64,000 nt of DNA from contig JAAYAY010000013.1 in the NCBI GenBank assembly GCA_012719125.1, positions 1-64,000 on the forward strand, given 5' to 3'. The stretch comes from Planctomycetaceae bacterium. GTDB taxonomy: Bacteria; Planctomycetota; Planctomycetia; Pirellulales; Thermoguttaceae. A model generated the notes under the pieces. It saw nothing but the letters and a program-made list of their open reading frames with translations, had not been told where the DNA came from and searched no databases. This document shows, one piece after another, positions 40,237 to 60,824 of this stretch (position 1 is its first letter; each line of letters starts with the position of its first letter). A program made the translations under genes and the position numbers.

Positions 40237-40376
40237 AGTCCAACCATTGTACTCCACAGCCCGAAGGTTGCAGCGGCGCGGGGCGGATTCTAAATTGGGG
40301 TGTCTGGGCAATACCGGCTCGGCACACCGTATTGGCTTTCGGCGTTGTCGCTTCTGGTAACACGGTGAGGAAGAAC

Positions 40377-41063
40377 ATGAACTTCTTGTACTCAGCGTCG
40401 GCATCGATGTTCACGGCCTGTTTGGCTTCTTCGTTGCTTCTGGCCGCCGAGCCGAAAACACCAGCGGTCGACATGTTCGGCCCGGAGGCCGCCAAGACGG
40501 TCACTTGGACGGCCTTCAGTGAAGACAAAGCCGCGAAGCAGGACGACGTCTGGCAGATCGGTCCGGAGTTGATCCTCTGCAAGGGTACGCCCCGCGGCTA
40601 TCTGCGAACGGTCGAGGATTTCACCGATTTCACTCTGGAGTTGGACTGGCGCTGGCCCAAAGACCGACCCGGAAAGGGCGGGGTCTTGATCCGGACCACG
40701 GGCGACGACAAGATCTGGCCGAAGAGCCTGGAGGCTCAGATCAATGCGGGCGATGCCGGCGACTTCTGGGGATTGGGCGGCTATCGGCTGGCCGGACCTG
40801 CGGAGCGAATGAAAACGCTCGAAAGCGAGCAGTTCGGAACGCTGACCAATTTGAAGAAGAACGAGTCGTGTGAGCGCGAACCCGGTGAGTGGAACCATTA
40901 TGAGATTGTCGCCCGGGGCGGCGAAGTCACGCTGAAGATCAACGGTCGACTGGTCAACAAGACCACATCCAGCGACGTCGCTGCCGGCAAGATCTGTCTG
41001 ACGTCAGAAGGGAGCGAGATCCATTTCCGCAACGTGAAAATTACCGTGCCGAACAAGCCGTGA
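40377..41063 (+). CDS. DUF1080 (3-keto-disaccharide hydrolase-like, LamG fold) secreted protein
   Basis: Signal 'MNFLYSASASMFTACLASSLLLAA'; 'FTLELDWRW...GGVLIRT', 'NAGDAGDFWGLGG', 'NHYEIVARGGEVTLKINGRLVNK', 'GKICLTSEGSEIHFRNVKI'. Confidence 0.85.
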   Translation: MNFLYSASASMFTACLASSLLLAAEPKTPAVDMFGPEAAKTVTWTAFSEDKAAKQDDVWQIGPELILCKGTPRGYLRTVEDFTDFTLELDWRWPKDRPGKGGVLIRTTGDDKIWPKSLEAQINAGDAGDFWGLGGYRLAGPAERMKTLESEQFGTLTNLKKNESCEREPGEWNHYEIVARGGEVTLKINGRLVNKTTSSDVAAGKICLTSEGSEIHFRNVKITVPNKP

Positions 41064-41158
41064 GCTTTGAGCCATGAACAGTGAGCGTTCGGCAGAGTTG
41101 CGGAATTCTCACTTTGAGCTCAACGCTTCCGTTTCTGAACCCTGTCTTGGAGAGAACC

Positions 41159-41851
41159 ATGCGAAGACGATCGATGTATAGCAGCCTGATTGCCCTGTTG
41201 GTCCTGACGGGCGCACCGCTCTCGGCGGAAGAGAAGTGCGTGGCCGATGTGAAAGAACCCGTCGAACTGTTCAACGGCAAGGACCTGAGCGGGTGGAGTT
41301 GCTTCCTCGTGGATGCAAATGCCAAGATGGAAGACGTCTGGAGCGTCAAGGACGGCATCCTGATCTGCAAGGGCGAGCCCCACGGCTACCTGGCCACGGA
41401 GAACCGGTACGAGAACTTCAAACTGATCGTGGAGTGGCGCTGGGCGCCGGGCAAAGAACCGGGCAACAGCGGTGTGCTGATGCGGATCACGGGCGAAGAG
41501 ATGATGCTGCCCAACTGCGTCGAAGCCCAATTGAAGAGCGGCGACGCCGGTGCCATGTACGGTTTCCAAGGCTTCAAGATCGACGGACCGGCCGAACGCA
41601 AGACGGAAACCAAGGGCCACAAGCTGGGCGGCGACTTGACGGGCCTGAAGAAGCTGGAGGCCGCCGAGAACACGCCTCCCGAGTGGAACCGCTACGAGAT
41701 CACGGCCAGCGGCGACAAGATCGCGGTCAAGGTGAACGGCAAGAAGGTCAATGAAGCGTTCGGCTGTGACGTGCGCTGCGGCAAGATCGCCGTCCAGTCG
41801 GAAGGCGGCGAGATTCACTTCCGCAAGATCTCGCTCCAGCCCGTCAATTGA
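41159..41851 (+). CDS. DUF1080 (3-keto-disaccharide hydrolase-like) secreted protein, tandem paralog
   Basis: RBS ggagag; signal 'MRRRSMYSSLIALLVLTGAPLSA'; 'FKLIVEWRW...SGVLMRI', 'KSGDAGAMYGFQG', 'NRYEITASGDKIAVKVNGKKVNE', 'GKIAVQSEGGEIHFRKISL'. Confidence 0.85.
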   Translation: MRRRSMYSSLIALLVLTGAPLSAEEKCVADVKEPVELFNGKDLSGWSCFLVDANAKMEDVWSVKDGILICKGEPHGYLATENRYENFKLIVEWRWAPGKEPGNSGVLMRITGEEMMLPNCVEAQLKSGDAGAMYGFQGFKIDGPAERKTETKGHKLGGDLTGLKKLEAAENTPPEWNRYEITASGDKIAVKVNGKKVNEAFGCDVRCGKIAVQSEGGEIHFRKISLQPVN

Positions 41852-42237
41852 CGCCCCGTCCTGCCTGAGTCTTCTATCCGAAACGGCCCCGGTTTCGTCC
41901 GCTCGAAGCCGGGGCCGGCTTGCATTGAGAGACGATCGCCAAGACGCGACCCATATCCCCCGAAAGAGCTAGATTTGCGATTGTGTTGCCGAAACGCAAC
42001 GCGGCAAGAATTCCCCATCTACTCTGATCGTAAAATCCTGCGCCGAAATCTCTCCGCAGCAGCCAAGAATGTCCCTTTCGGCTGATCCAATTTCGTGCGA
42101 GTTCGATTACACTCGGAACTATCGGACGCTGGATTTCGTCCTTAGGGACAGTGTAGGATTGTTATGGCTCTGCGCCAGTTGGCGGGCGATCGGTGGGTTC
42201 TGCAAGCCCGAACAGACACTCAGGTACGGCAGAAGAG

Positions 42238-45200
42238 ATGAGTACAGTCCAAGGTTTTCGTTTTCCGCAGCAGCGTACAAAGAAAGCCACGACAGCCCGG
42301 TCTTCCCGCGTCGAGGCCCTCGAACCTCGGCGGGTCCTGGCGGCGCCGACGCTGGCAGATCTCCCCAGCGAGATCAACATCTACGCGGGTGCTCCCGTCC
42401 ACCTCGCTCTGGGCGGCGCGGATGCGGACGGCGACAGTCTTACCTATACGGTTTCCAGCACGAATCCCCAGATCAGCGCATCGATCCCCAAGCAGGAGGC
42501 CCCCAACGGCAACCGGAGCATGCGGATTACGGTGCAGGGGTACGGGCAAATGGTGTTCGAATTGTTCGAAGGCCGCGCTCCCGAGACGACCTCGCGCATC
42601 ATCGAGATCGCCGAATCCGACTGGTACGACGACCGGATCTTCCACCGCGTCATCGACGGTTTCATGATTCAGGGCGGTTCCCGCGACGGGCTGGGCATCA
42701 ACGGAACGGGCACCCAGTTCGACGACGAATACGACGTGGAACTCCAGTTCACCTCCTCGGGGCTTCTGGCGATGGCCAAGGCCGGCGACGACACGAACGA
42801 TTCCCAATTCTTTATCACCGACGTGCCCTCGGGCGGCTATTCCTATCCGCGCTGGCTGGACTTCAACCACACGATCTTCGGCAAGCTGACTTCCGGCGAC
42901 AACGTTCGCGAAGCCATTTCGGCCGCCGCGACCAATTCGAGCGATCGTCCGACCACAGACATCGTCATCGAGTCGGTCGAGATCTTTCAAGACACCCAGA
43001 ATGCCGTGATGATGATTGCGGCGCCGCACGGCACCTACGACACGGGCAATATCACGGTCACCGTGAGCGACGGAAAAGGAGGTACGGCCAGCAAGACGGT
43101 CCAGGTCAACGTCCTGCCGGACGGCAACAACAACAACCCGTTCCTCGGCCCGATCGATCCCATTCGACTGGCGATCGACCAGCCTTACAGTTTCCAACTC
43201 AACGCCACGGACGTCGAAGGCGACAAGATCTACTACCAGGCCGAATTGCTCACCGACACGGACGATATCACGGTCGAGGTTTCGGAGTCCGGGCTGGTGA
43301 CGATCACGCCCAAGAACGAAGTCGTCGGCGTGGCCGAAATCGCCTTCCGCGTGGGTCCCACTGCCGCGTCGCTCGTTCCCGACGAATACGGGGACTATGA
43401 AGAGGCAACGATCGACGCGCAAATCGTGACGATTGAGATCCCCCCGGCAAAACCCGTCATCAGCTTTGCGCCCGGGGCGGACACGGGCGTTCTGGACGGC
43501 AACACCTCCAAAGACAATTCCTCGGGCAAGGAACTCTTCTTTGAGGTCAAGAACCTCCAGGCCACGTCGGAACTGGCCATCTATCTCCAGGGGGTGCAGG
43601 TGGGTTACGAGCAAATCGCCCGGATTCCCCAAGGGGACGGCACCAGCAATTTCGTGGCGACCATCCGCTTGCGATCGGAGATGGTGCTGGACGACGGGAA
43701 CTACACCCTCCACATCCAGCAACTTCTGCCGCTCGACTCGGAACTGTATGGCGACCAGAAGTTGGCAAGCGACGTGTCGGAACCTCTCGAGTTCTCCGTC
43801 GACACCGCGCCCCCCGTCATCACTTCCGAGGCGGTGGATGTCGCCTTCCAGGGAGAAGAGTACTTCTACGACGTCGACTCCGACGACGAAGGCGACGACG
43901 ACGTCTACTACGAACTGCAGATTCCGTTTCCCGCGGGGATGACCATCGATTCCGCCACCGGTGAGATCCGCTGGACTCCCGCAGCGACGGCCGGTTTCAC
44001 CGAGGAAGTCGTCGTCCGAGTGACCGACGGTGCGGGAAACAAGGGCGAGCAATCCTTCGAGATCACGGTTTACGCTCCCCTCGAGATCAGTCTCGAAGAA
44101 GGCGACACCAGCGTCGACGAACTGCAGACCGTGACCCTGATCCTCGAGGCCTCCAATCCCGCGGATTCGGCCTCGTCGCTGGTCATCACCTTGCAGGACG
44201 GGGTGTTGCCGGCCGAGGCCTATACCCTCGAACAACTGGACGGAAATCGTGCCCGCTTCACCTGGACGACCGGGGAAGCGGACGGACCCGGGGTCTACGA
44301 TCTGGTGTTCGGCGCCAACGACGGCGCCGATGCGCGCGGCAGTGAGACCATTCGAATCACGGTGAGCGAAGTCAACCAGGCACCCGAGTTCACCGAGGTC
44401 TTCGACGAGTGGACCGGGGCGGAAGAAGAACGAATCGATCTGCAATTCGTGGCGTCTGACGGCGATCTGCCCGCCAACGAATTGCTCTTCAACCTGTTTG
44501 GCGAAGTCCCCGACGGAGCGGTGATCGACGAAACCAGCGGCCTCCTCTCCTGGACCCCGGATGAGATCGACGGTGGGCGGACCTTCGAGTTCGGGGTCCG
44601 CGTGACCGATTCGGGCGGCCTGTCGGACGAACACACCATCGTCATCACCGTCGTCGAGAACCAGAAGGCGCCTGTCTTCGATCCCACGCCTCCTCAGCGA
44701 GTGACCGAAGGGGAGGTCCTTGATTTCGTCGTCGCGGCGCACGATCCCGACGTCCCCGCCCACGCCCTTGAGTATCAACTCGAAGGGGATGTGCCGGCGG
44801 GCCTTACCATCGACGCGCAAACGGGCCGCATCCGTTGGGATGTGCCGGAGGGGTATCTTCCCGGCACGACTCTGGAAGGCACTCTCGAACTGACCGTCGT
44901 CGCACGCGAAGTCGTGGCGGCCACGGAAGTTGGGCAGATCGCTCGGCAAACCGTGGAAATCACGGTGGTCGACGGCCTGGCCGATCTCGTCGCTGCCACA
45001 CTCACGCTGGCAGAGACGGCAATCTCCGATCCATTGGCCGGGCCGACAACCGTCTCGCTCACCGCGTTGACGCTCGATCGAGGATCGGAAGTACCCACGG
45101 TCTCGCAGAAGGCCGAGTTCTATGACGATCGAGGGTTCTTCGGGACCCTGTTCGGTCCGATCGGCACCGGCGGTGGAATCGAGCCTGGGACCAAGGAGAA

Positions 45201-45534
45201 GTCGGATTCCGAGGGCGAGACCGATCCCGGGGCAAACGGCGAGGGAGAACAAACCTCGGCCCTCGAACGACTGCTCGACGAGATCGCGGGCGACGTGAGC
45301 ACCAGCGTCTTCGACGCCCTCCTCTACGCCAAGACTGTTCCCGCCGACGCGCGCGAAGAACCGCCGGTTCCCGCTGACGAATCCCAGCCGGTTCCCCTGC
45401 CCACCGAGGAAGCGGCTCCTCCTGCTGAAGCCTCTGGGGCCGGGCAAACCCAGTCGGCTGCGGAGACCGAACTGGCCTCTGAGAAGCCCGAGAAGCCCGA
45501 AAAGGCTCCGCAAGGAGAGACCGTCAACTCCTAG
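42238..45534 (+). CDS. Giant secreted protein: N-terminal cyclophilin-type PPIase domain fused to multiple He_PIG/cadherin-like Ig repeats, acidic C-terminal tail
   Basis: Planctomycete-type N-terminal motif 'RVEALEPRRVLAAP'. Cyclophilin core 'MVFELFEGRAPETTSRIIEIAESDWYDDRIFHRVIDGFMIQGG...SGLLAMAKAG..NDSQFFIT...HTIFGKL'. Repeated 'PAGMTIDSATGEIRWTP', 'VIDETSGLLSWTP', 'PAGLTIDAQTGRIRWDVP' (He_PIG-like). Acidic tail rich in E/P/A. Confidence 0.8.
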   Translation: MSTVQGFRFPQQRTKKATTARSSRVEALEPRRVLAAPTLADLPSEINIYAGAPVHLALGGADADGDSLTYTVSSTNPQISASIPKQEAPNGNRSMRITVQGYGQMVFELFEGRAPETTSRIIEIAESDWYDDRIFHRVIDGFMIQGGSRDGLGINGTGTQFDDEYDVELQFTSSGLLAMAKAGDDTNDSQFFITDVPSGGYSYPRWLDFNHTIFGKLTSGDNVREAISAAATNSSDRPTTDIVIESVEIFQDTQNAVMMIAAPHGTYDTGNITVTVSDGKGGTASKTVQVNVLPDGNNNNPFLGPIDPIRLAIDQPYSFQLNATDVEGDKIYYQAELLTDTDDITVEVSESGLVTITPKNEVVGVAEIAFRVGPTAASLVPDEYGDYEEATIDAQIVTIEIPPAKPVISFAPGADTGVLDGNTSKDNSSGKELFFEVKNLQATSELAIYLQGVQVGYEQIARIPQGDGTSNFVATIRLRSEMVLDDGNYTLHIQQLLPLDSELYGDQKLASDVSEPLEFSVDTAPPVITSEAVDVAFQGEEYFYDVDSDDEGDDDVYYELQIPFPAGMTIDSATGEIRWTPAATAGFTEEVVVRVTDGAGNKGEQSFEITVYAPLEISLEEGDTSVDELQTVTLILEASNPADSASSLVITLQDGVLPAEAYTLEQLDGNRARFTWTTGEADGPGVYDLVFGANDGADARGSETIRITVSEVNQAPEFTEVFDEWTGAEEERIDLQFVASDGDLPANELLFNLFGEVPDGAVIDETSGLLSWTPDEIDGGRTFEFGVRVTDSGGLSDEHTIVITVVENQKAPVFDPTPPQRVTEGEVLDFVVAAHDPDVPAHALEYQLEGDVPAGLTIDAQTGRIRWDVPEGYLPGTTLEGTLELTVVAREVVAATEVGQIARQTVEITVVDGLADLVAATLTLAETAISDPLAGPTTVSLTALTLDRGSEVPTVSQKAEFYDDRGFFGTLFGPIGTGGGIEPGTKEKSDSEGETDPGANGEGEQTSALERLLDEIAGDVSTSVFDALLYAKTVPADAREEPPVPADESQPVPLPTEEAAPPAEASGAGQTQSAAETELASEKPEKPEKAPQGETVNS

Positions 45535-45741
45535 CATCTCGCACCGGAAACACGCCGGGATCATCGGCCGGTCTCCAGCTTTCTATCATTCCAAGTTCTT
45601 GTCGGGGAATAGGTTGCGCTTCCTGATCCAGGACCGGCAGCCTGCAAGACGCTTGATCTAGTGGCATACCACGCCCGACCTGAGAGGGAGTTTTTTTGGG
45701 GATCGGGCTGAAGGTCTGGATAAAGTTTGTCGATTATTCCT

Positions 45742-45751
45742 ATCACGTGAT
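45742..45751. promoter_or_regulatory. Perfect 10-bp palindrome ATCACGTGAT upstream of the secretin gene
   Basis: 'atcacgtgat' lies in an AT-richer stretch about 70 nt upstream of the secretin start at 45820. Confidence 0.3.
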
Positions 45752-45819
45752 CTTTGCGGATTGCGCTCAGATTTCGTGTTGACCCCCAAACATGGTGATG
45801 GGTTCCGGGAAACCAGACA

Positions 45820-48800
45820 ATGACCAGACCGCTAACGTGCGCTTCAGACAGGGTAGTTGGTGTTCGTTGGTGGGCCTTGGCAGCAACAGCGTTGGCAGTT
45901 GTGCCTTGGAGTTGCCCAGGATTGCACGCTGCGGAGTATCAGCGGCCGGTCTACCCGGCCACTCAAGGCGCGTATCAGGCACAGGTCCCTGTTTCGCGAG
46001 CGGCGACGCCCGTGCAGCGGATCCCGGCCTACGCCTCGAATCCTCCTCAGGGAATGCAGCAGGCCACGTACTCAGACGCGTTGGCCGGTGGGACGGAGCC
46101 GGTCCTGCGGGCCTATTCCTGCACGCCGGCCCAGGGTGCCGTGCTCGACGCCACTCTGAACGAGCAGTTCAGAGGCCAAGGCAATGTGCGGATCGTCCTC
46201 GACCGCGGAGCCAGCCAACTTTTGGTCATGGCGCCCGAGCCGATCCAGCAACAGATCGCGGCCCAGATTCGAGCGGTGACCGCGGTCGCGGCAACGGTGC
46301 CCCAGCCCATGCCCGTGCAGCCGGTCGGCACCACTCCCATCGCGGCGCCTGCGAATGCTCAACGCCGCGAGTATCAACTCAGATATCTGACGGCAGCACG
46401 GCTGGAGGCGATTCTCCAGACCGCACTCGGGAATCGTTGGAGCCCGCTCCAGCAACCTGCCGGGGCACCGCCGGCTTATCACCTCCTGGTCGGGGGACGA
46501 CCCGATTTCACCATCTGGCTCGACCACGGTCGGAACCGATTGCTGCTCCAAGGCCCCGGGGGAAAGCCCTATGAGTCCTGTGCTCGACTGATCGAGTTGC
46601 TTGACACGCCCAACTCTTCGGACGGCTCGAGCCGCTGCCTGGTGTCGCTCACTACGGTCAGCACCGACGATCTCACTGCGGTCGTCAACGCCATTCATAC
46701 GACCAACGGTCCGGTGTCGCCCCGCAGGAGTGCGATCGGGCCCGCCAATGTCGTTCTGGCGCAGGCTACCGGACCGGCCGAGCAGCCGGCTGCTCTCGCG
46801 GCGCCGGGCGACCGCGAAGAAGTCACGGCCACCGTACCGTTTCCGGGCGGCGCCGAGCCTTCTGCCGGCACCGGGTTGATGGGGCCCGTTCAGATCGAAA
46901 TGGTCGAAGGCCTCGGTGTGCTCGTCATCAAGGGCGACAAACGCGACGTGGCCCAGGTGGTGAAACTGATCCAGGAAATCCAACAGATGAGCGATTTGAC
47001 CGAACCATCGGTCGTCGTGCACCCGCTCACTCACGTGAACTGCGAAGCGCTGGCCACTTTGGTGAGCACCCTCTACAGCGAAGTCTTCTCCACCCGGCAG
47101 GGGACGGTGAGCATCACCGCCCTGGTGAAGCCGAACGCCCTGCTGTTGATCGGACGCCCCGAGAACGTCGATACGGTCGTCAACCTGGTCAAACGCCTGG
47201 ACCGCCCGGTCCCACCGGAATCGCAGTTCAAAGTGTTTCGTCTCCGCCACGCCGCGGCGGCGACTGCCCAGGAAACGATCGAGCAGTTCTTCCAGGACAG
47301 CGAAGGGGAGCAACTGGCCGGATTGGGAACGCGGGTCCATGTGCTTGCCGATTTCCGCTCCAACTCGCTGATCGTCCGGGCGAGCCCCCGCGATATGCTC
47401 GAAGTCGAGCGCATGATCAACGAGATCGACACGCGCGACGCTACGGCCGTCAACGATCTGCGCGTCTTCAAATTGAAGAACTCCCTGGCCGAAGACCTGG
47501 AACCCATCCTGCAAAACGCCATCGCCGGGCAGCAAACGGGGCAGGCCCAACAGAACGTCGAGCAGAAATCGATCGGTCTGCGGCTAGTGACCATCGATTC
47601 GGCCGGGCAGAAACTGCTCAGTTCGGGTATCCTCACCGACGTGCGCGTGACCGCGGATCCGCGAGCCAACGCCCTGTTGATCTCGGCCCCGGCCGAAAGC
47701 ATGCCGCTGATCGAGGCCCTGATCAACCAGCTCGATCAACTGCCCGTCGCCGAAGCCCAGTTGAAGGTCTTCACGATCGTTAATGGCGATGCGGCCGCCC
47801 TGGTCGACATGCTCGAAGCCCTGTTCGGCCAGACCACCACGAACCAGAGCGAACCGCCGGTTCGCACCGGGGCTGCTGAGGGCGACAGCTCGCTCGTCTC
47901 GCTGCGATTTGCCACCGACGTCCGCACCAACAGCATCATCGCATCGGGCAGCCTGGGCGATCTGGCCGTGGTCGAGGCCATTCTGTTGCGGCTGGACGAA
48001 AGCGATGTTCGCGAGCGGAAGACCACGGTCTATCGCTTGAAGAACGCGCCGGCTCCCGACGTGGAGACCGCCATCAACGAATACCTCGATCAGGAGCAGC
48101 AGCTTCCCAACATCGGCGAAGGCCTGTTCAGCACCTTCGAGCTTCTCGATCGGGAAGTCATCGTGGTCGCCGAAACGGTCAGCAACAGCCTGATCGTCAG
48201 CGCCACGCCCAAGTACTACGACGAAATCAAATCCCTGGTCGAACAGCTCGACGAACGGCCCGGCATGGTCATGATCCAGGTGCTGATCGCCGAGGTCTAC
48301 CTCAACGACACTGAAGAGTTCGGCATCGAACTCGGCTTGCAGGACTCCGTTCTGTTCGATCGCAGCCTGCTGGGCGATATCACGACCATTAGCCGCACCA
48401 CCCAGGAGCCTGGCCTGGCGCAGGTCGTCACCCAGCAGATCGTCACTGCCACGAACGAACCGGGCTTTCTGTTCAACGACCTGACAAGTCCCCTGGGCAA
48501 CAGCGGGGCGTCGAACGCACTGGCCCAGTCTAATGTGGTCGGAGGTCAAGGCCTCTCCAACTTCGGCGTGGGGCGAATCAACAGCGAGCTCGGATTCGGC
48601 GGGCTGGTCATGTCGGCTTCGAGCGAGTCGGTGAGCGTGCTTCTGAGAGCCCTCAAGGAAGACCGGCGGATCAACATCCTCAGCCGGCCCCAGGTCATGA
48701 CCCTCGACAATCAGCCCGCCTCCATCCAGGTCGGCGAACGCGTTCCCACCATTAGCGGCAGCGAGACCAACGATGCGGGCGGGTTGACCAACCAGATCGA

Positions 48801-49602
48801 TTTCCAGGACGTCGGCCTGATTGTCGGGGTGACGCCCCGCATCAGCCCCGACGGGCTGGTGGTGATGGAGATCGACGCCGAGAAGTCGGAAGTCGGCCCC
48901 GAAGCCGAAGGCATTCCCGTTTCGGTCTCCGAAGGGGTGACCATTCGCAGCCCGCGAATCAAAACAATCACCGCCGCGACAACGGTCAGTGCGTTGGACG
49001 GGCAGACGGTGGTGCTCGGCGGTCTGATCACGTCGAACAAGACCAAGGTCGATCGGCGCGTGCCCTGGCTGTGCGAGATTCCGATCCTCGGTCAACTCTT
49101 CCGCTACCAAGGGTATACGTCCAAGAGGAGCGAACTGCTGATCATCATGACGCCGCGAATTGTGAAAAACGAGCAGGATGCCGAAATCGTCATGCAAACG
49201 GAAGCCGCTCGCATGAGTTGGTGTCTCAACGACGTGCTCGAACTTCACGAAGACGTCGCTCTCCGCCCACGCGGCGGCGAGTGGAAAGACGACGAAACGA
49301 CCACGATCTATCCCGACGGAAAGCCGACACCCGAGGAACTCGACAGCCTCGACAAGACTCCTCTCGATCCCCCCGCCTCGCCCACCGTGGCGCCTCCGGC
49401 GGATCCCTCGGCCGGCGCCCAACGCGGACGTTTCACGCCGGCAAACCGCCCCGGGACTTCCTATGTCGCCCCGGCCAACTATGAATCGAACCTGGACGCC
49501 GCGGCCCGCCCAACCGGCGGGGTTTATCCGGCCACGGGTTCCTACAGTTCCGCCGGACAAGCCTCTCCAACCGCCTCGTCCTATCCGTCAACAGGCTATT
49601 GA
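45820..49602 (+). CDS. Type II/III secretion-system secretin family protein (GspD/PilQ-like), unusually long (1,260 aa) with Pro/Ser/Tyr-rich C-terminal extension
   Basis: Signal 'WWALAATALAVVPWSCPGLHA'; repeated N-domains ('LRVFKLKNSLAEDLEPIL', 'LKVFTIVNGDAAALVDML', 'TVYRLKNAPAPDVETAI'). Secretin domain 'TTVSALDGQTVVLGGLITSNKTKVDRRVPWLCEIPILGQLFRYQGYTSKRSELLIIMTPRIV'. Confidence 0.9.
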   Translation: MTRPLTCASDRVVGVRWWALAATALAVVPWSCPGLHAAEYQRPVYPATQGAYQAQVPVSRAATPVQRIPAYASNPPQGMQQATYSDALAGGTEPVLRAYSCTPAQGAVLDATLNEQFRGQGNVRIVLDRGASQLLVMAPEPIQQQIAAQIRAVTAVAATVPQPMPVQPVGTTPIAAPANAQRREYQLRYLTAARLEAILQTALGNRWSPLQQPAGAPPAYHLLVGGRPDFTIWLDHGRNRLLLQGPGGKPYESCARLIELLDTPNSSDGSSRCLVSLTTVSTDDLTAVVNAIHTTNGPVSPRRSAIGPANVVLAQATGPAEQPAALAAPGDREEVTATVPFPGGAEPSAGTGLMGPVQIEMVEGLGVLVIKGDKRDVAQVVKLIQEIQQMSDLTEPSVVVHPLTHVNCEALATLVSTLYSEVFSTRQGTVSITALVKPNALLLIGRPENVDTVVNLVKRLDRPVPPESQFKVFRLRHAAAATAQETIEQFFQDSEGEQLAGLGTRVHVLADFRSNSLIVRASPRDMLEVERMINEIDTRDATAVNDLRVFKLKNSLAEDLEPILQNAIAGQQTGQAQQNVEQKSIGLRLVTIDSAGQKLLSSGILTDVRVTADPRANALLISAPAESMPLIEALINQLDQLPVAEAQLKVFTIVNGDAAALVDMLEALFGQTTTNQSEPPVRTGAAEGDSSLVSLRFATDVRTNSIIASGSLGDLAVVEAILLRLDESDVRERKTTVYRLKNAPAPDVETAINEYLDQEQQLPNIGEGLFSTFELLDREVIVVAETVSNSLIVSATPKYYDEIKSLVEQLDERPGMVMIQVLIAEVYLNDTEEFGIELGLQDSVLFDRSLLGDITTISRTTQEPGLAQVVTQQIVTATNEPGFLFNDLTSPLGNSGASNALAQSNVVGGQGLSNFGVGRINSELGFGGLVMSASSESVSVLLRALKEDRRINILSRPQVMTLDNQPASIQVGERVPTISGSETNDAGGLTNQIDFQDVGLIVGVTPRISPDGLVVMEIDAEKSEVGPEAEGIPVSVSEGVTIRSPRIKTITAATTVSALDGQTVVLGGLITSNKTKVDRRVPWLCEIPILGQLFRYQGYTSKRSELLIIMTPRIVKNEQDAEIVMQTEAARMSWCLNDVLELHEDVALRPRGGEWKDDETTTIYPDGKPTPEELDSLDKTPLDPPASPTVAPPADPSAGAQRGRFTPANRPGTSYVAPANYESNLDAAARPTGGVYPATGSYSSAGQASPTASSYPSTGY

Positions 49603-49631
49603 TGCACTTTCGCTGCAAGGATATCGTTCCA

Positions 49632-50585
49632 ATGACACTCCGGATTCGTGAAACGGCGGTCCGCTCTTGGTGCGTGCTTCTGGTGGTCACGGCCTGTCTG
49701 GCAAGCGGCTGTGCCCAATGGGACTTGAAGAAGTCCTGGACGCCCTCCCTGTTCGGTGACGGCAACGACAAGCCTCAGATACCTAACCGGGTCGTTGCCG
49801 TGTGGGTCGACACGATCCGCTACACCCAGGGCCAACCTCCCACGCGAGGATTCGGCGGTCGCTTGATGTTCTACCAGAAGGACGAAGAGAAGCCGGTCAA
49901 GGTCGAAGGCGAACTGGTGGTCTACGCCTTTGACGAAGAAGATCGGAAGCCCACCGATCCGCGCCCGACACGCAAGTATGTCTTCCCGGCCGACCAAATC
50001 GACGCGTACTACAGCGAGTCGAAGATCGGGCACTCCTACAGCTTCTTTGTGCCCTGGGACGAAGTGGGCGGATATCGCAAGAACATCAGTCTGATTGCTC
50101 GCTTCCAGCCGAAACTGGGACCGGTCGTTGTCGGCGAGCAGACCCACCACATCCTGCCCGGCAAACCGTTGCCGGAGGATCTGCAGAACGCGAGTGCGGA
50201 AACAGACTACGCAGGCTCGGTACGGGCAGCCTCATTCAGTTCGCCCACGCCGGAGGAAAAGCCATACGACCCGAACCGCGCGCGAATGAAATCGACCACC
50301 ATCCCGCTGTCGCCCTCGTTCGGCCGGCAGACGCCTAAGGCCGAGGTCCGGCGCCGCTCGGTGGGCTCGCAGACTAGGGCGTCGGTTCCAGCAACGCAGG
50401 CGCTTCCTGAGAATCCGGACTCGCCGCAACCTTCAACTGATTCTCAACTTTCCAGATCCCGGCCTCAAGCATCGCCAATCGTTCGGCGAGAAGGCGATCG
50501 TGCTCTGTCGACACCACGCCTCGCAGCGTGGCGGTCCCCTGGTCGACCGACACTTCCAAAGGCGTCCGGTTCTGAATCCAAGTAG
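49632..50585 (+). CDS. Lipoprotein of unknown function immediately downstream of the secretin (pilotin-like position), low-complexity C-terminus
   Basis: Lipobox 'LLVVTACLASGCAQ'; starts about 30 nt after the secretin stop. Conserved-looking core 'VVAVWVDTIRYTQG...RLMFYQKDEEKPVKVEGELVVYAFDE'; the C-terminal S/P/R-rich tail overlaps a convergent gene. Confidence 0.6.
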   Translation: MTLRIRETAVRSWCVLLVVTACLASGCAQWDLKKSWTPSLFGDGNDKPQIPNRVVAVWVDTIRYTQGQPPTRGFGGRLMFYQKDEEKPVKVEGELVVYAFDEEDRKPTDPRPTRKYVFPADQIDAYYSESKIGHSYSFFVPWDEVGGYRKNISLIARFQPKLGPVVVGEQTHHILPGKPLPEDLQNASAETDYAGSVRAASFSSPTPEEKPYDPNRARMKSTTIPLSPSFGRQTPKAEVRRRSVGSQTRASVPATQALPENPDSPQPSTDSQLSRSRPQASPIVRREGDRALSTPRLAAWRSPGRPTLPKASGSESK

Positions 50586-51394: not shown

Positions 51395-52753
51395 TCACAT
51401 GGCCCTCGTCGACGGGTAGATCGGAATCGAACCGCCGGTCAGGGGGGAGAAAACCGGGACTCGCACGGATCGGTCGACCGGCGGCAAGGGCGCGAACCCG
51501 GGCGGCGCAGAAGACGCCATAGAACGGCGATTCTGCCCGGAGTAGCCGGTGGAGACGGAACTGCGGCCATAGCCGTCGTCTGATCGGGAGTAGCCCCAGC
51601 TCTCCGTCGACCGGGGTTCATTCTCAACCGGCACAAGTCCCAGATTGCTGCTGGCGGGAACGGCGCCGGCGGAGGCTGCTGCCGAGTCCTCATACGAGGG
51701 GGGACTGTACGCGTAAGGGCCCGACGGCAGCGCGGTAACGGATTCGCCGCCCGGCCAGGTGCTGGAATCGTCGGCAGCAGCCTCCTGCCGTTCGCCGTAG
51801 CGAGTGGGAGAACGGTCGTTGTCGAACGATGAGTCGTTCCCGTAGGAATCACTCAGAGAGTTGTCCCGAGAGTTGTTGTTGCCGTAGGTGTTTTCGTCGG
51901 TGTTGCTATAGGTGTTGCCGTAGCTGTCGGAACTGTCGCCATAGGACGAGTCATCCCGGTGGGAGTAGCTGTCGTCGGCATAGGAATTCGTTCCATACGG
52001 ATCGTATTCTGAATCCCCGTTCGACTCGTCCCTGCTCGAGTCGTTCCAGGAATAGTCGTTTCCCGTCTCTGTGTCGTCCCCGGCCAGAGTCGCCCGCGAT
52101 TTCCCGCTGCTCCCCCCCGAACCATAAGTGTCGGACTTGGCTCGGCTCTTGTTGCGACGATTGCGTTTGGCACTTGCAGAATCGTCCTGGTTGGACGAAT
52201 CCTTGCTCCCGTAGCCGTCGTACCCGTCCTTGGAGGACGTGGAATCCTCGTCGCAGTAACCATAGGAATCGCCGCGGCTGTCCGAAGCGTCTTCGTCCGA
52301 GCTGTCTTCTTCCTCGTGGCTCTTTCCAGACGAGTAGCGATTACTCGCGTAGCTGGAGCCGTATAACGAAGAGTACTTGCTTGACGACTCCTCTTCATTC
52401 AACTCGTCCGATTCTTCTTCCTCTTCTTCCCCGTAGGAACGATGCGAACCGTAGGAATACGAACTGTATTCGGATTTTCCCTCCGAATCGTCGTTCCCGT
52501 AGCTCGACCAACTGGAGCGGCAGCCGGACGACGATACCTCCGCGGCTTCATCGGTGTCGGCCCCGTAACGGCCCCCTGCCTTGTCCGAATCTGTCGCATC
52601 GCCGGTCGATTCGGCACAAACCACCACCCGCGTCGAAGAAGACGCTTCCGGGACTGCAGCCATCTCGAGGACCACGGGGAATCGGGCCGTATTGAACCCG
52701 ATACACGTGGCCACGAGCATCACGACGGCGATGGCGGCAGGGATTCTTGGCAT
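51395..52753 (-). CDS. Secreted, strongly acidic Ser/Asp/Tyr/Gly-rich low-complexity protein (452 aa)
   Basis: Signal/TM 'MPRIPAAIAVVMLVATCIGF'; then near-continuous S/D/Y/G/E/N repeats ('SEYSSYSYGSHRSYGEEEEEESDELNEEESSSKYSSLYGSSYASNRYSSGKS', 'DSSYGDSSDSYGNTYSNTDENTYGNNNSRDNSLSDSYGNDSSFDND'). Uninterrupted 1.36-kb ORF despite lower local GC. Confidence 0.55.
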   Translation of the reverse strand: MPRIPAAIAVVMLVATCIGFNTARFPVVLEMAAVPEASSSTRVVVCAESTGDATDSDKAGGRYGADTDEAAEVSSSGCRSSWSSYGNDDSEGKSEYSSYSYGSHRSYGEEEEEESDELNEEESSSKYSSLYGSSYASNRYSSGKSHEEEDSSDEDASDSRGDSYGYCDEDSTSSKDGYDGYGSKDSSNQDDSASAKRNRRNKSRAKSDTYGSGGSSGKSRATLAGDDTETGNDYSWNDSSRDESNGDSEYDPYGTNSYADDSYSHRDDSSYGDSSDSYGNTYSNTDENTYGNNNSRDNSLSDSYGNDSSFDNDRSPTRYGERQEAAADDSSTWPGGESVTALPSGPYAYSPPSYEDSAAASAGAVPASSNLGLVPVENEPRSTESWGYSRSDDGYGRSSVSTGYSGQNRRSMASSAPPGFAPLPPVDRSVRVPVFSPLTGGSIPIYPSTRAM

Positions 52754-53183
52754 GGTCTTGTTTTCTCGTTTCCGTCGCTCCAAGCGACCGAGAAAACATA
52801 CACGCCGAGCCGAGCGCTGCAAGCGCGGAACAGACCAAATCGCAGGGTTTTTCTCCGCCCTGGCACGGCACGAGTCGGTTAGCGAAACCTTGCCGTTTTT
52901 CGGCGGAGGTTCACATCGAAAGCACCAGGAATTCGGGCAAGGCAAGAGAGAGAAGAGACGTAATCACGGCACTGTGAACCGATGAATCCGTACGGTAAGG
53001 CTGTAGCAGATGGGCGCTCTCCGGGGTAGGACTCTGCCGAGTTTGTGGGTGGGACCGTCGCGGCGGTTCTCTCGGATATCTACGTAGCCTTGATCTCCTC
53101 CGGGCTCGTTCCGATGGACAGCGTCACCTCGCCCCATTCCTCGGGCGCAAGGCGTTCCACAAGAACGGACCAGATCAGATCGT

Positions 53184-55700
53184 TCACTCCTTCAGTTCCA
53201 CTACATCTTTCCCCTGGGAACGCACGCCGATGATGCGGCGGCCGTCGACAATCACCTGGTACGTCACGCCGTTTTCGCCCTCGATGATGGCCTGGTCGCC
53301 CTGAAGGGTGACGGGAAACGGTGCTGCCACCCGGTGCGTCTTGTCGGCCGCCACCGAAATCGCGTCGAGTTTGCCCTCCAGCACGAGGCGCAAGCTGACC
53401 AGCGCGCAGGGATTGATCGTCCAGGGACGACGTTCCTGGGTCTCCAGCGCCAACGCGTCCGGAAGAAGGCCCGCGTAGTCGCCGTCGGGATACTGCATCT
53501 GCTCGCCCGCAATCAGAATCCCCCAGGCGAGGTGTTTCCAGTCGAGCGTGTCGTCGTAGGGTGCCAGCTTCGTGAGGGCATAGGCATACACTAGTCCGAC
53601 CCATTGGACCGGGAGTCCGAACCAGACGGGGGCTCGCCAGTTGGTCGCTCCCAGAACGGGAACCGTCCCGTAGACCATGATCGGTTGATTGCCCCACTGG
53701 TAGACGAACGGTACTCCGGAAATCGCCCACCGGCGCGCCTCGTCGAGATAGCTCTTGTCGCCCGTCAGTTCATAGCCTCGCACGTAGGCCCAGACGAGAT
53801 AGGCCGACGCCAGTTGGTCGGGAGTGTGCAAGGGAATCTCCCAAACTTGGGCGCCGCGAGGCGTGCGGAACCGCTTCATGTACTCCAACGTGCGGACACC
53901 AGCCTCCAGGGCGCGGGGGTCCGCCGTAATCCAGGCGTATTCCAGCAGGCCGGCCGCCGGCCTGGCGCAAACGCCGCTTGCCGTGTCTTCGTGGTGGCCC
54001 TGGGCGAACTTGCCCTGATAGCGAAAAGAACCGTCCTCCTGCTGCTGTTTCAGCAATCCGTCGATCTGCGCAAGCTGCTTCTCCTTCCATTCGAAGGCCT
54101 GATTGGTCAGGAAGAAAATCGATTCGTTGGCGATATGGGCGCCGCGCATCGTGAAGTCGCGCCGTCTGGGCACCTGGCCCGTGAGTCGGAAAAGCGTGGA
54201 AACCATGTCGGCGAAGTACTGCCTCGGCCAGCGGTCTTCGACGCAATGGCCCCATCCCTCGGTGGATCGCAGGGGACCATTGAGCGCTTGCAGGCAGAGT
54301 CGGTACTGGGCCTCGGAGCTGCGTGGGGCGTCTGGTAAGGGAGGAAGCCCGCGGCGCTTCACCGCCCAAACGATCTGATCCTCCAGAGAGCCGCCGGCCA
54401 CTCGCAGGACCGCCTTGATCGTGGAACCCTGCAAGGCCATGCGGTGATCGTCGGCCGCGTCGAAGAAATTGGGTGTGGCAAAGATCGGTTGCAGGCCCAT
54501 GTCGTCCCAGGTCAGCGAGACCGACGCTCGGTCGGTGACAAACGACATGAGCGGCATGGTCACGTCGAGCGGCTTGGGGGCGAAGCGGAGGTGGGCTTCT
54601 GTTTCCACGTCGAGCTTGGTGGAACTGTGTTCTCCCTTTCCGAGGTGTTCCAGGCCGGCGAGCAGGCCCTGCTCCAGGCCGCCCAAGACTCGGACCACCG
54701 GGCCTTCACACACGCTCTCGCTCTCGATGACGATATGAATCTCGTTGCCGGCGGTCGAAAGCGTCAACGCAACTCCCTCACCGCGAAACTGAAGGGATTG
54801 AGGCGTGGACGTCAAGTTGAACGACGGGATCCGGTAATCGCAGTGAACCAGCGGCGCCAACAGGGCGACCACCTGGTCGTTCCGAAAAACGCGAGCCGCC
54901 TTGCCGTCCGGAGCGACCTGCAGCTTTCCGCCCTCCAAGGGCATGTCCAGCCACTGGACCGGCGCCTCCGGATGCACGACGAAAAGCGAGCGGCTCACGT
55001 CGGGCAGACCCTCGGCCTGAAGGTCGATCCGAATCGGTTCGATGAGTTGCTTGGCGTCGGTGCCGATCGCGATCACCTTCTCGGTCCCGGGCTGCAGCAA
55101 GAGTACCTGCCCGGCGGCGGTGAACTGTCTCGGTGAGGTCCCATGATTCTTGATCGTGAATTCCGCCCCCGCCTCCGTTAACGCGATACGATCAATCGAC
55201 AACGGGTGCTCGCCCAGGTGGACGAGGCGAATCCAGTCGATCTCGATTTCCCCGGCGCCGTCGGCCGGATCAAGCCGGATGTCGGTCAAATGCCCGGGAG
55301 CGTGGAAGTCGACCTTGTATTCGTGCCACTCATTGTCGGGAATCACTTCGAGGGAACGCGCCTTGTCGTCGCCCCGGCGCGGCGACTCCCGGGTGATCCA
55401 ATAGACCTGGGCAGGCCCTGGAGCCGTGCCGCGGGCGCGGTACTCGAGAGCCATCTGCCCCCCGGAAGTGTCAACGCGGGCGTGCATGTAGGGATCCTTG
55501 CCGGTTGTGTGGACGAGCAGATTGCCGTCGCGGGTCGTCAGCTCGCAACGAGCTTCCGCAAACCAGCCCTTCGTCCCCTCGGAGAAGTCCCACTCCGCCA
55601 CCACTTCGCGGAGTGTTGGACGTGGCATCGGATTGATCTGAGGCAACGGTTCGTCGAACCCCGGCAAGCAGAGCAGACAGATAATGGCGGCGTGGTGCAT
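53184..55700 (-). CDS. Large secreted hypothetical protein (839 aa), possible glycan-active alpha/alpha-toroid-like C-terminal region
   Basis: RBS ggagg before 'MHHAAIICLLCLPGFDEP'; no named motif recognised. C-terminal third is W/Y-rich ('YLVWAYVRGYELTGDKSYLDEARRWAISGVPFVYQWGNQ'). The function is inference only. Confidence 0.55.
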   Translation of the reverse strand: MHHAAIICLLCLPGFDEPLPQINPMPRPTLREVVAEWDFSEGTKGWFAEARCELTTRDGNLLVHTTGKDPYMHARVDTSGGQMALEYRARGTAPGPAQVYWITRESPRRGDDKARSLEVIPDNEWHEYKVDFHAPGHLTDIRLDPADGAGEIEIDWIRLVHLGEHPLSIDRIALTEAGAEFTIKNHGTSPRQFTAAGQVLLLQPGTEKVIAIGTDAKQLIEPIRIDLQAEGLPDVSRSLFVVHPEAPVQWLDMPLEGGKLQVAPDGKAARVFRNDQVVALLAPLVHCDYRIPSFNLTSTPQSLQFRGEGVALTLSTAGNEIHIVIESESVCEGPVVRVLGGLEQGLLAGLEHLGKGEHSSTKLDVETEAHLRFAPKPLDVTMPLMSFVTDRASVSLTWDDMGLQPIFATPNFFDAADDHRMALQGSTIKAVLRVAGGSLEDQIVWAVKRRGLPPLPDAPRSSEAQYRLCLQALNGPLRSTEGWGHCVEDRWPRQYFADMVSTLFRLTGQVPRRRDFTMRGAHIANESIFFLTNQAFEWKEKQLAQIDGLLKQQQEDGSFRYQGKFAQGHHEDTASGVCARPAAGLLEYAWITADPRALEAGVRTLEYMKRFRTPRGAQVWEIPLHTPDQLASAYLVWAYVRGYELTGDKSYLDEARRWAISGVPFVYQWGNQPIMVYGTVPVLGATNWRAPVWFGLPVQWVGLVYAYALTKLAPYDDTLDWKHLAWGILIAGEQMQYPDGDYAGLLPDALALETQERRPWTINPCALVSLRLVLEGKLDAISVAADKTHRVAAPFPVTLQGDQAIIEGENGVTYQVIVDGRRIIGVRSQGKDVVELKE

Positions 55701-56146
55701 CGGTTCCTCCAGACATCCCTGTTGGGCAGTCGGCCGCCCGCCACAGAGCCCGACGCGGACGGCGAAAACGCCAGTGTAGCAGATCCCCCGGCAAGCCGCG
55801 CACCGGCCGACGGGCTCTCGAAGAGAATCTGCGGGCTGACGGGCCCAGCGTTGGGCTGATGGACGGACTCCATGCGTCCCAAGGGCCCTGGCTGACCCAC
55901 TGGACGCCGAAATTCTGTCTCGCCTTGTGGCGAACGCGGTGAGCCAATTACGATAGGAGATATCACCGGCCATCCATCGGCGATTGGAGTCGGATCGTCT
56001 GTCTTGTGCTTGCCCTACTCCGTCTGGGTTCCAGCTTCTCGTTCGATCGGGGGGCAAAAACCGCCGGAGCCCCCAACCCCACTGGTTGGGCGGATTGGGT
56101 GGCCGGAGGCGGGAATCGGAACCTCGCAACCCCTCGGAGTGCGGCA

Positions 56147-57469
56147 ATGCCCCGACGCAATCTACGCGTTCTCGTCCTGGCGTTGCTGGTGTGCCTCCTC
56201 TGCGCGCCACGCGTCTCCCGATCCGGTCGCGTCCTCTGGTTTGCCATGCGCCACATCGAGGCCCACTACCTCACCTCCGTCGACGAAGAAAAACTGTTTC
56301 AAGGGGCCATGGACGGGATGACGAAGGCATTGGGCGACCCCTATTCAGCCTATATTCCCCCCGAAGTTCTCCCCGAATTCAATGAGCAAATCGATCGCCA
56401 GTTCGGCGGGCTGGGAATCGAGATCCGGATCGACCACGATACCAAGTACCTTACCGTCGCCAGCCCACTCGTTGGCACGCCGGCAGCCGAGGCCGGTCTG
56501 CTTGCCGGCGATCGAATCCTGCGAATCGATGATGAAAGCACTCAAGGCCTTTCCATCGAGGACGCCGCCAAACTGCTTCGCGGCCTGCCCGGGGAACCGG
56601 TGACGCTGACCATCTCGAGGAAGGGTGCGAAAGAGACTCGCCAGGTTGAGGTCGTTCGTGCCGAGATTCAGGTCGGTACGGTGTTGGGAGACACGCGCGA
56701 TGCGGACGGCTCCTGGAACTACTACCTCGACGGGTATCCCGGAATCGGATACCTGCGACTCGATTCTTTCGGCGAGAACACCGGGGCGCAGATGCGCGAG
56801 GTGATCGCCGATCTGAAGAAACAGGGCCTGAAAGGTCTGATTCTGGACATGCGGGGCAACCCGGGCGGCCTGCTGCCCGCGGCAATCGACGTCTGCGACC
56901 TGTTCGTTTCTCCCGACGATCCCCCCTCGACCGGGCCCGGCGGTGAACACATTTCGTCCGGCCTGATCCTCACGACACGCGATCGCCGGGGACAGGTGAT
57001 CCAGGAATTCTACGCCCATGACGACGGAACCGTGAACGGCTTTCCCATGGCCGTGCTTGTCAACGGGGAGAGTGCCTCGGCCGCCGAGATCGTGGCCGCT
57101 TGCCTTCAGGATCACGGCAAGGCGATCGTCGTGGGGGAACGCTCGTTCGGAAAGGGCACCGTCCAGGAGATTCTCGACTTTCACCCGGACCAGGGGCTCC
57201 TCAAGCTGACCATGGCCAGTTATTGGCGTCCCAGCGGACGGAACATCAACCGCAGCGAAGGCGCGCAGGAATGGGGCGTATCGCCTAATGCCGGTTTTGC
57301 GGTCGCCCTCAACGATGAGGAACGGGTCAATCTTGCCGTCGCGCGGCGGATGCGCGACGTAGCCGAGTCCTACACCGACGAAGAACTGGCCGCAGAAGAA
57401 GTCCCCGAGTTCAACGATCGCCAGCGCAATGCGGCCGTCGAGTGGATCGAGGATCAGATCTCGAACTGA
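56147..57469 (+). CDS. Carboxyl-terminal processing protease (S41 family, CtpA/Prc-like) with PDZ domain
   Basis: Signal 'LVLALLVCLLCAPRVS'; PDZ 'LAGDRILRIDDESTQGLSIEDAAKLLRGLPGEPVTLTI'; S41 'GLILDMRGNPGGLL', catalytic Ser 'VLVNGESASAAEIVAACLQDHGKAIVVGERSFGKGTVQ'. Confidence 0.9.
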   Translation: MPRRNLRVLVLALLVCLLCAPRVSRSGRVLWFAMRHIEAHYLTSVDEEKLFQGAMDGMTKALGDPYSAYIPPEVLPEFNEQIDRQFGGLGIEIRIDHDTKYLTVASPLVGTPAAEAGLLAGDRILRIDDESTQGLSIEDAAKLLRGLPGEPVTLTISRKGAKETRQVEVVRAEIQVGTVLGDTRDADGSWNYYLDGYPGIGYLRLDSFGENTGAQMREVIADLKKQGLKGLILDMRGNPGGLLPAAIDVCDLFVSPDDPPSTGPGGEHISSGLILTTRDRRGQVIQEFYAHDDGTVNGFPMAVLVNGESASAAEIVAACLQDHGKAIVVGERSFGKGTVQEILDFHPDQGLLKLTMASYWRPSGRNINRSEGAQEWGVSPNAGFAVALNDEERVNLAVARRMRDVAESYTDEELAAEEVPEFNDRQRNAAVEWIEDQISN

Positions 57470-60315: not shown

Positions 60316-60824
60316 GGCTGCAATCGCTGAAGTGCCGAAGGGAGGAGCTCTCGCGGGTTCCTTCCCGACTGGCCGCCGCACTCTCCATTCTGATTGGAGC
60401 GCGCAGGAATCTCCAAGGTTTTGTACTGGAGGATGCAAACTCGGGACCGAACAAGAAAGATCCGCCCGTCACCGACTCAGATGCCTAGCCGTTTTGAGGG
60501 GTGAGCAGCCGTGTGCCCGGAAGCAATCGGCACAATCCGCATATTTCGAACCGCAACATCCGAGCAATCGTTCGAATGCCAGCCGTGCGGTCCGTCCCGT
60601 GCCGCGGGCTTTTCGCATACCGGCTCTGCCCGCGAAGCAAGAAGGCAGCGTACTCCGTCCTTGTGTTGCCAAAAGACAACACGCCGCGAAATTCATGCCG
60701 CAGAAGGACTCCCGATTATCCGACCTGCGGCACGGAAACGTTCTATGTTTACTCAGATAGTGGCGTTGTTTCCTCCGCCAGCCAACAAGCAAACACCAAC
60801 CAGTCCCACCACGCGAGGACGGCC

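Follow-up and report, generated by a model that had tools for sequence, protein, structure and literature searches.

Cyclophilins are among the best-studied enzymes, yet those of bacteria are regarded as small, stand-alone proteins. The exported ones are represented by the periplasmic PpiA of E. coli, PpiA of L. lactis and SlrA of S. pneumoniae (PMC3307742, PMC11853100), which are folding catalysts of about 20–30 kDa that act outside the cytoplasm independently of ATP, carry a classical Sec signal and are either soluble in the periplasm or attached through a lipid or transmembrane anchor. L. lactis PpiA, an exported surface cyclophilin, has both peptidyl-prolyl isomerase (PPIase) and chaperone activity (PMC3307742). 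Here we describe a gene at positions 42238–45534 of a 64,000-nucleotide stretch of DNA (hereafter the window) from a Planctomycetaceae bacterium (GCA_012719125.1, contig JAAYAY010000013.1, positions 1–64,000, forward strand). Its product carries a cyclophilin-type PPIase domain inside the first of seven immunoglobulin (Ig)-like domains. By analogy, periplasmic and surface cyclophilins are its functionally closest counterparts; it has the same catalytic fold and active-site residues, and its predicted location is likewise outside the cytoplasm. It differs from them in its size (1,098 amino acids), its LE.R.LLA leader, its lack of a detectable anchor, the nesting of the enzyme and the presence of six more Ig-like domains.

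The topologically closest described proteins are AquaCyp293/300 (PDB 5ex2/5ex1) of Hirschia baltica, from the marine Alphaproteobacteria, whose N- and C-terminal extensions likewise fold into a second domain (PMC4898713). That partner, a novel mixed alpha/beta domain termed NIC, also draws on a segment inserted in the cyclophilin, to which a disulfide joins it. In the planctomycete protein, by contrast, the partner is an Ig-like Big_9 sandwich without the defining features of NIC, there are no cysteines and a long stalk follows. Multidomain cyclophilins of eukaryotes and cyanobacteria such as Cyp40 (TPR), PPWD1 (WD40), PPIL4 (RRM), PPIL2 (U-box) and TLP40/anaCyp40 (PsbQ-like) resemble our protein in that non-catalytic partner domains position the cyclophilin, but those partners are attached in tandem with the enzyme and the proteins work within cells. 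The partners named in a recent paper on them are WD40, RRM, TPR, PsbQ-like, Zn finger 'and others'; it names no Ig-like or stalk domain and describes no inserted cyclophilin (PMC8967839). Fibrillar and periscope-type adhesins (PMC8286594, PMC9210967, PMC9704523) share with it an Ig-like stalk of variable make-up and a single functional domain. Here, however, the functional domain is an enzyme, and the combination of a recognised adhesive domain with a surface anchor was not found. Literature on cyclophilins together with planctomycetes, Ig-like domains, domain insertion or the secretome yielded no description of this architecture.

Cyclophilin head and its host domain

The gene is a single unbroken open reading frame (ORF) on the forward strand (42193/42238–45534) that gives 1,098 amino acids from the ATG at 42238. 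Along its whole length the product is 100% identical to a protein already in the databases, which has records on 18 contigs and the NCBI name 'MAG: hypothetical protein GXX96_01545 [Planctomycetaceae bacterium]'. The GC content at third codon positions (GC3) is 0.77 in this frame. An antisense ORF of 1,114 amino acids (42220–45564, − strand) is nearly its mirror image; we consider it a non-coding shadow typical of high-GC DNA because of its codon-position GC (GC3 0.65, GC1 0.77). The protein contains no cysteine and has an overall isoelectric point (pI) of 4.05. An AlphaFold2 model of the full-length protein, made with a 40-sequence alignment (A1), had a mean predicted local distance difference test score (pLDDT) of 75.9 and divided the protein into a disordered leader (residues 1–33), a well-folded region (about 37–912) and a disordered tail (from about 917). 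The parts of the gene, all on the + strand, are as follows.

42238–45534 (stop codon included), +: whole gene for the 1,098-residue cyclophilin/Ig-stalk protein, export predicted (ORF, identical database protein, GC3)
42238–42345, +: basic N-terminal leader, residues 1–36, pI 12 (motif conservation; pLDDT below 50 over residues 1–33)
42313–42345, +: planctomycete motif EALEPRRVLAA at the end of the leader, residues 26–36 (at least 90% conserved in A1)
42346–42510, +: N-terminal half of the split Ig-like domain D1, residues 37–91, four strands and a DADGD acidic loop (AlphaFold2; Big_9 on splicing)
42511–42990, +: cyclophilin-type PPIase domain, residues 92–251, nested in D1
42991–43125, +: C-terminal half of the split D1, residues 252–296, three strands
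43126–43803, +: Ig-like domains D2 (residues 297–402) and D3 (403–522), both divergent (AlphaFold2 strand blocks)
Within 43804–44973, +: Ig-like domains D4 (residues 523–613, He_PIG) and D5 (614–711) (Pfam, AlphaFold2)
Within 43804–44973, +: Ig-like domains D6 (residues 712–807, Cadherin_5/He_PIG) and D7 (808–912, He_PIG) (Pfam, AlphaFold2)
44974–45531, +: acidic, disordered tail rich in Pro, Glu, Ala and Gly, residues 913–1098 (pLDDT below 50 from residue 917; composition)

A preliminary description made from the sequence of the window had proposed a cyclophilin fused to He_PIG/cadherin-like modules, with a planctomycete leader motif and an acidic tail. The ORF, Pfam and AlphaFold2 results agree with that outline, and the strings it quoted are all present (EALEPRRVLAAP at residues 26–37, ATGEIRWTP at 573–581 and TGRIRWDVP at 862–870). 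Two of its details need amendment. The cyclophilin is complete, as it stated, but lies inside the first Ig-like domain (residues ~92–251) and not at the very N terminus; and the Ig-like array that it put at 900 residues exists but covers about 620 (six further domains, residues 297–912), followed by the 186-residue tail.

Pfam Pro_isomerase (PF00160) matched residues 95–248 with 116.7 bits (cut-off 21.7, E = 1.5e-33), over profile positions 2–158 of 159, and like the He_PIG, Big_9 and Cadherin_5 matches described below it exceeded the curated cut-off. NCBIfam gave PpiA/PpiB-like matches, and the eight-stranded beta-barrel of the cyclophilin fold is present. The best sequence matches among solved structures were PPIL1 (E = 1e-30) and M. 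tuberculosis PpiA, and the closest matches to the cyclophilin core by sequence and structure together were PPIL1, PPWD1 and PPIL2. We aligned the domain with human cyclophilin A (hCypA) and E. coli PpiB. Eleven of the 12 active-site residues of hCypA are identical: R55 (R137 here), F60 (F142), M61 (M143), Q63 (Q145), A101 (A180), A103 (A182), Q111 (Q190), F113 (F192), W121 (W206), L122 (L207) and H126 (H211). The sole change is N102 to K181, a position at which E. coli PpiB has Arg.

A word-indexed search gave 504 homologues at E ≤ 1e-5; the 120 that were listed are the homologues counted here and below. R55, A101 and Q111 are invariant in all 120, whereas F60 and L122 are each kept in 119, Q63 and F113 in 118, and H126 in 111, the other nine having Tyr. 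Because 11 of 12 active-site residues are kept and three of them are invariant across the homologues, the domain is likely to be an active PPIase. In the alignment the catalytic Arg, Phe and His are thus all retained, and on this conservation we reject a degenerate, non-catalytic cyclophilin-like domain.

We examined the flanks of the cyclophilin by splicing in silico, joining residues 36–92 to residues 255–301 with the cyclophilin removed. The spliced flanks gave one Big_9 match that ran over profile positions 11–89 of 89 with 34.8 bits (cut-off 23.6). On its own, the N-terminal flank had no Pfam match, and the C-terminal flank matched only profile positions 64–89, with 22.6 bits. The tandem-95 model of NCBIfam (tand_rpt_95) behaved in the same way as Big_9 on splicing. 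AlphaFold2 modelling of residues 34–300 alone, with a 64-sequence alignment (A2), gave a pLDDT of 95.0 and a predicted template modelling score (pTM) of 0.92, and placed four confident strands ahead of the cyclophilin and three behind; in the full-length model the first four span residues 45–49, 54–57, 69–74 and 80–82 at a pLDDT of about 90. Because the splicing and AlphaFold tests agree, we take residues 37–91 and 252–296 to be the two halves of one Ig-like domain, so that the cyclophilin is inserted between the fourth and fifth strands of the first Ig-like (Big_9/cadherin-like) domain. The model presents the two domains as one rigid body, which we call the head. Since four strands precede the insertion and three follow it, the insertion loop probably lies at the end of D1 that it shares with its N terminus, facing away from D2. 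Foldseek comparison of the head with the PDB returned matches to the cyclophilin only (query-normalised TM-score, TMq, at most 0.56), and therefore no solved structure has the nested arrangement.

Homologous fusions recur among Planctomycetota. PF00160 is combined with Ig-like arrays in every one of the 120 homologues, and a profile of the head matched all of them, over essentially the full model in 114 and to at least model position 247 in the other six. The head stands at the N terminus in 86 of the 114 full-head members, and 338 to 1,413 residues lie beyond it across the set. Partner domains listed include He_PIG, Big_9, several Cadherin families, SdrD_B, PKD, dockerin, HemolysinCabind and LTD. 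All are families of the stalk, beta-sandwich or binding type, so that on these lists the only domain with a catalytic role appears to be the cyclophilin. When the head was compared by exhaustive phmmer search with 1.84 billion representatives of 50% identity clusters, 751 clusters matched at E ≤ 1e-30, and the alignments of the top 150 all spanned nearly the entire head. Of the 240 proteins examined, 239 have one or more full heads and 15 have two complete ones (P0121, P0030, P0053, P0122 and P0123 are among the double- or internal-head examples). The head is N-terminal or internal, lying as far in as residue ~2117, in proteins of up to 2,479 residues. From these comparisons, the nested head is the conserved evolutionary unit of the family, and the stalk behind it is interchangeable.

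Source names, where available, were Planctomycetaceae, Pirellulales, Planctomycetales, Thermoguttaceae and Rhodopirellula. The lone name from outside the Planctomycetota was that of P0123 (NCBI NQU25738.1, 'Candidatus Nealsonbacteria'), which has two heads and the leader FEPLEQRQLLTVAPTL; because this is a typical planctomycete leader, the contig is probably a mis-binned planctomycete one. The head module is thus apparently restricted to Planctomycetota. A scan of genome contigs found two loci only, in a Thermoguttaceae metagenome-assembled genome and an uncultured Planctomycetaceae genome, and no other cyclophilin or Ig-array paralogue was found within the window.

Leader, stalk and tail

The leader (residues 1–36) has no hydrophobic core. 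After its basic stretch, SRVEALEPRRVLAA at residues 23–36 matches the N-terminal consensus RRLxxExLExRxLLA of the planctomycete extracellular motif (PMC8567305), and the literature treats LE.R.LLA as a signal for export to the planctomycete cell surface (PMC8567305). In T. immobilis, 20 of 52 motif proteins were detected, 8 of those only in the sodium dodecyl sulfate-soluble fraction (PMC8567305). E26, L28, E29, R31 and L34 are each at least 90% conserved among the 40 sequences of A1, and ExLExRxLLA occurs in the first 150 residues of 96 of the 120 homologues. In six frames of the window the motif pattern found only two sites, both at the starts of long ORFs. The second belongs to the one further ORF of the window that bears such a leader (57454–60438, − strand), a beta-helix protein of about 950 residues with the leader MRMHPDSRRPRRSGLGQRLSIEPLESRLLLA, repeated 'DSAGDD'-type units in its N-terminal half and NosD/Beta_helix domains in its C-terminal half.

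A signal peptide cannot be hidden upstream, since just 54 codons separate the motif from the preceding in-frame stop. We found no Sec signal with a lipobox and no N-terminal transmembrane anchor, the leader having no hydrophobic stretch and the protein no Cys. The highest 19-residue Kyte–Doolittle score, 1.52 at the junction of D7 and the tail, does not indicate a transmembrane helix, and we found no signature of anchoring or secretion, whether LPXTG, type 1 secretion, autotransporter or another. A hydrophobic C terminus occurs in just 2 of the 120 homologues. The 'surface-tethered' of the preliminary description therefore finds no support in a transmembrane helix, hydrophobic signal peptide or C-terminal anchor segment. 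The protein lacks cysteine, has a pI of 4.05 and carries all-beta stalk domains of a kind typical of extracellular proteins, and export is a reasonable inference from these features and the leader.

AlphaFold2 strands and Pfam boundaries together delimit seven Ig-like beta-strand blocks, D1–D7. He_PIG matched three stretches with 119.9 bits (cut-off 24), Big_9 four stretches with 76 bits (cut-off 23.6) and Cadherin_5 residues 712–805 with 38.7 bits (cut-off 26.5). D4, D6 and D7 are mutually related (E values of 1e-8 to 1e-10), and D4–D7 were modelled at a pLDDT of about 80–93. D1, D2 and D3 are divergent; the similarity of D2 and D3 to other domains is weak, but their strand blocks reached a pLDDT of 85–94 and tand_rpt_95 matched residues 321–373. 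Ten stalk prolines are invariant in A1: P403, P406, P526, P716, P745, P758, P774, P812, P853 and P870.

The tail contains 19% Asp plus Glu and 10% Pro, and its last 138 residues are rich in Glu, Ala, Gly and Pro. Short helices were predicted at residues 915–925, 1008–1018 and 1023–1030. Its conservation is low, although D.G.FG.lFGP.G..GG and LD..A....DALL stand out weakly as motifs. Near the C termini of head proteins with unrelated stalks, short motifs for acidic amphipathic helices of the D..LL/DALL type recur: a pattern for them matched 34 of 240 family proteins, compared with 11.3 ± 3.5 in shuffled sequences and 2% of internal windows. Our protein has no match to the pattern, though AlphaFold2 gives two short helices at residues ~1007–1030 (window ~45256–45327). 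Such a motif might serve these proteins as a common element for attachment or secretion.

Possible roles of the head

On balance, and with moderate confidence, we favour the reading that the gene product is an exported cyclophilin-type PPIase, either soluble or loosely attached, carried on an Ig-like stalk. The leader would direct export by a planctomycete-specific route. An Ig-like domain is about 4 nm long, which we assumed for the length of the rod; with the enzyme placed from strand counting, the head would sit at one extremity of a rod of about 25 nm. Outside the cytoplasm and without ATP, it would speed the cis/trans isomerisation of Xaa-Pro bonds, with other exported proteins as substrates in trans and possibly its own emerging Ig domains in cis.

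Several observations weigh against this reading. The LE.R.LLA leader is a putative signal, and the Pfam model for it, Planc_extracel (PF07595), stayed below its gathering threshold here (13.0 versus 25.5 bits, E = 0.086), although the core ExLExRxLLA is present and conserved. The proteome tables in the T. immobilis supplements list small cyclophilins only. No membrane or cell-wall anchor was found that could serve as the base of the stalk. Within the active site, the N102 position is Lys in our protein and in 92 of the 120 homologues, and the W121 position varies (Trp in 66, His in 34); kinetics and cyclosporin sensitivity may for these reasons differ from those of hCypA. Finally, the neighbourhoods of distant members share nothing informative, and no gene family recurs in them except CinA. 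CinA lies upstream of both P0043 and P0063 (loci L005 and L009), which are evidently orthologues of each other. Efflux-type genes were seen downstream: near P0043 they are of the MFP and RND types, and P0063 is followed at a distance of 211 bp by an OEP/TolC-like gene; this may be coincidence.

The same architecture could instead be that of a fibrillar adhesin, an Ig-like stalk whose cyclophilin tip binds proline-containing peptides on cells, prey or surfaces and for which turnover is incidental. We regard this as unlikely, but it accounts for a good deal. A single non-stalk domain combined with repeated Big_9, He_PIG and cadherin-like domains matches the definition of a fibrillar adhesin, in which Big_9 is listed as a stalk domain (PMC8286594), strand topology would place the head at the extremity of the rod, and, as in adhesins, the stalks of the family differ freely in length and kind. 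Against this, cyclophilins go unmentioned in both of the adhesin surveys consulted, PMC8286594 being one, and no anchor to the cell wall or a membrane was detected. The invariance of the catalytic R55 also argues for an enzyme, as mere binding would not demand it, and internal or duplicated heads suit an enzyme module better than a tip. A doubtful but related proposal is that the head evolved together with the non-classical LE.R.LLA export route of the Planctomycetota as an extracellular module specific to them, either as a dedicated foldase for their many giant Ig-array surface proteins or as the first cyclophilin-based adhesive tip for proline motifs on foreign surfaces.

A further alternative keeps the enzyme but confines it to its own polypeptide: the head would come out first and isomerise the prolines of the Ig-like domains behind it, with no general clients. 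The head is always accompanied by at least 338 further residues in the 120 homologues, the domains listed there are of beta-sandwich types, many of the invariant stalk positions are prolines, and most full heads are N-terminal, all of which would suit a built-in foldase. Yet many planctomycete Ig-array proteins bear the same leader and have no cyclophilin (the beta-helix protein of the window being an example), and where the head lies deep inside its protein, as far as residue ~2117, most of the array would come out ahead of it. We think it improbable that the enzyme acts solely in cis.

Gene neighbourhood and implications

Two tandem paralogues stand directly upstream of the cyclophilin gene and are preceded by two genes on the opposite strand, an aconitase and then an RluA-type pseudouridine synthase.

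40332–41063, +: DUF1080/3-keto-disaccharide-hydrolase protein, first of the tandem pair
41081–41851, +: DUF1080/3-keto-disaccharide-hydrolase protein, second of the pair

Downstream, on the same strand, the start of a gene for a secretin of 1,260 residues with five Secretin_N domains lies 286 bp from the cyclophilin gene. Intergenic gaps are long (286–475 bp). A scan of positions 41700–46000 found no promoter-like sites and one terminator-like site, which is inside the cyclophilin gene on the minus strand; this is fewer than expected from shuffled sequence.

The preliminary description had suggested that the cyclophilin services the substrates of the adjacent secretin, or acts on the low-complexity protein that follows further downstream (51395–52945, − strand). 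The shared strand, the secretin start 286 bp downstream, the retention of this adjacency in relatives with 60–69% identity and the non-classical leader would fit a secretin accessory. In those relatives (69% and 60% identity), however, the order is identical from the aconitase through RluA, the DUF1080 pair, the cyclophilin and the secretin to the lipoprotein gene that follows it, and because the whole region is collinear the adjacency carries no specific signal. When nine loci were searched by tblastn with the secretin of the window, it was present only at these two (L001 and L002; L007 is the contig of L002). It was absent at the 52% homologue L008, which has 4.3 kb of downstream DNA, and within the available DNA around P0021 (45%), P0040 (40%), P0043 (39%), P0063 (36%), P0089 (34%) and P0027 (head-only), giving seven distant loci without it (L003–L006, L008, L009 and L010). 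The long intergenic gaps also speak against a functional unit. As to the low-complexity protein, it is encoded on the opposite strand, contains only 5.1% Pro and has no link to the cyclophilin gene. We conclude that neither partnership is supported, and that a role as secretin accessory is very unlikely; functional coupling was rejected because linkage occurs only where the entire neighbourhood is collinear.

Other genes of this neighbourhood are of interest in themselves. The ORF at 49599–50585 (+ strand) overlaps the stop codon of the secretin gene by 4 nucleotides; its likely start gives MTLRIRETAVRSWCVLLVVTACLASGCAQ, a signal peptide of the lipoprotein type with the lipobox LASGC. The lipoprotein has no Pfam match; L001 and L002 keep it immediately after their secretin genes, at about 55% identity, and it is a candidate for a pilotin-like partner of this unusually long secretin. 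The low-complexity protein has about 400 residues rich in Ser, Asp, Gly, Tyr and Glu and no Pfam match; its likely start is M65 (MPRIPAAIAVVMLVATCIGF), and this segment would form a transmembrane helix or signal anchor. It is followed by an ORF of 1,008 residues (53184–56210, − strand) that has no Pfam match at E ≤ 1e-3 and whose true start is probably internal, a hydrophobic segment, MHHAAIICLLCLPGF, lying near residue 171. An S41 protease and then the leader-bearing beta-helix protein come next in the gene order.

The remaining explanation, that two genes were fused by a chimeric assembly or by faulty gene calling, we regard as refuted, for the protein is encoded by one uninterrupted ORF and recorded on 18 contigs, the head recurs in all 120 homologues and is complete in 239 of 240 proteins examined, and halves of a single domain flank the cyclophilin on both sides, which joining two genes end to end cannot yield.

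The practical outcome is modest: the gene had been rightly described, and its link to the secretin is unsupported. Databases already label relatives 'peptidylprolyl isomerase' at the level of the domain. What is new here is the nested head as a large, uncharacterised and apparently Planctomycetota-restricted module, with at least 751 clusters. The head illustrates clearly how nature can insert one domain into another and, being compact (about 260 residues), cysteine-free and modelled at a pLDDT of 95, would express easily for assays. As exported foldases, if that is their role, these proteins would bear on the ATP-free folding of very large planctomycete surface proteins, and on the LE.R.LLA export leader. 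Should the head prove to be a co-evolved dedicated foldase or an adhesive tip, it would represent a new functional class of cell-surface cyclophilin.

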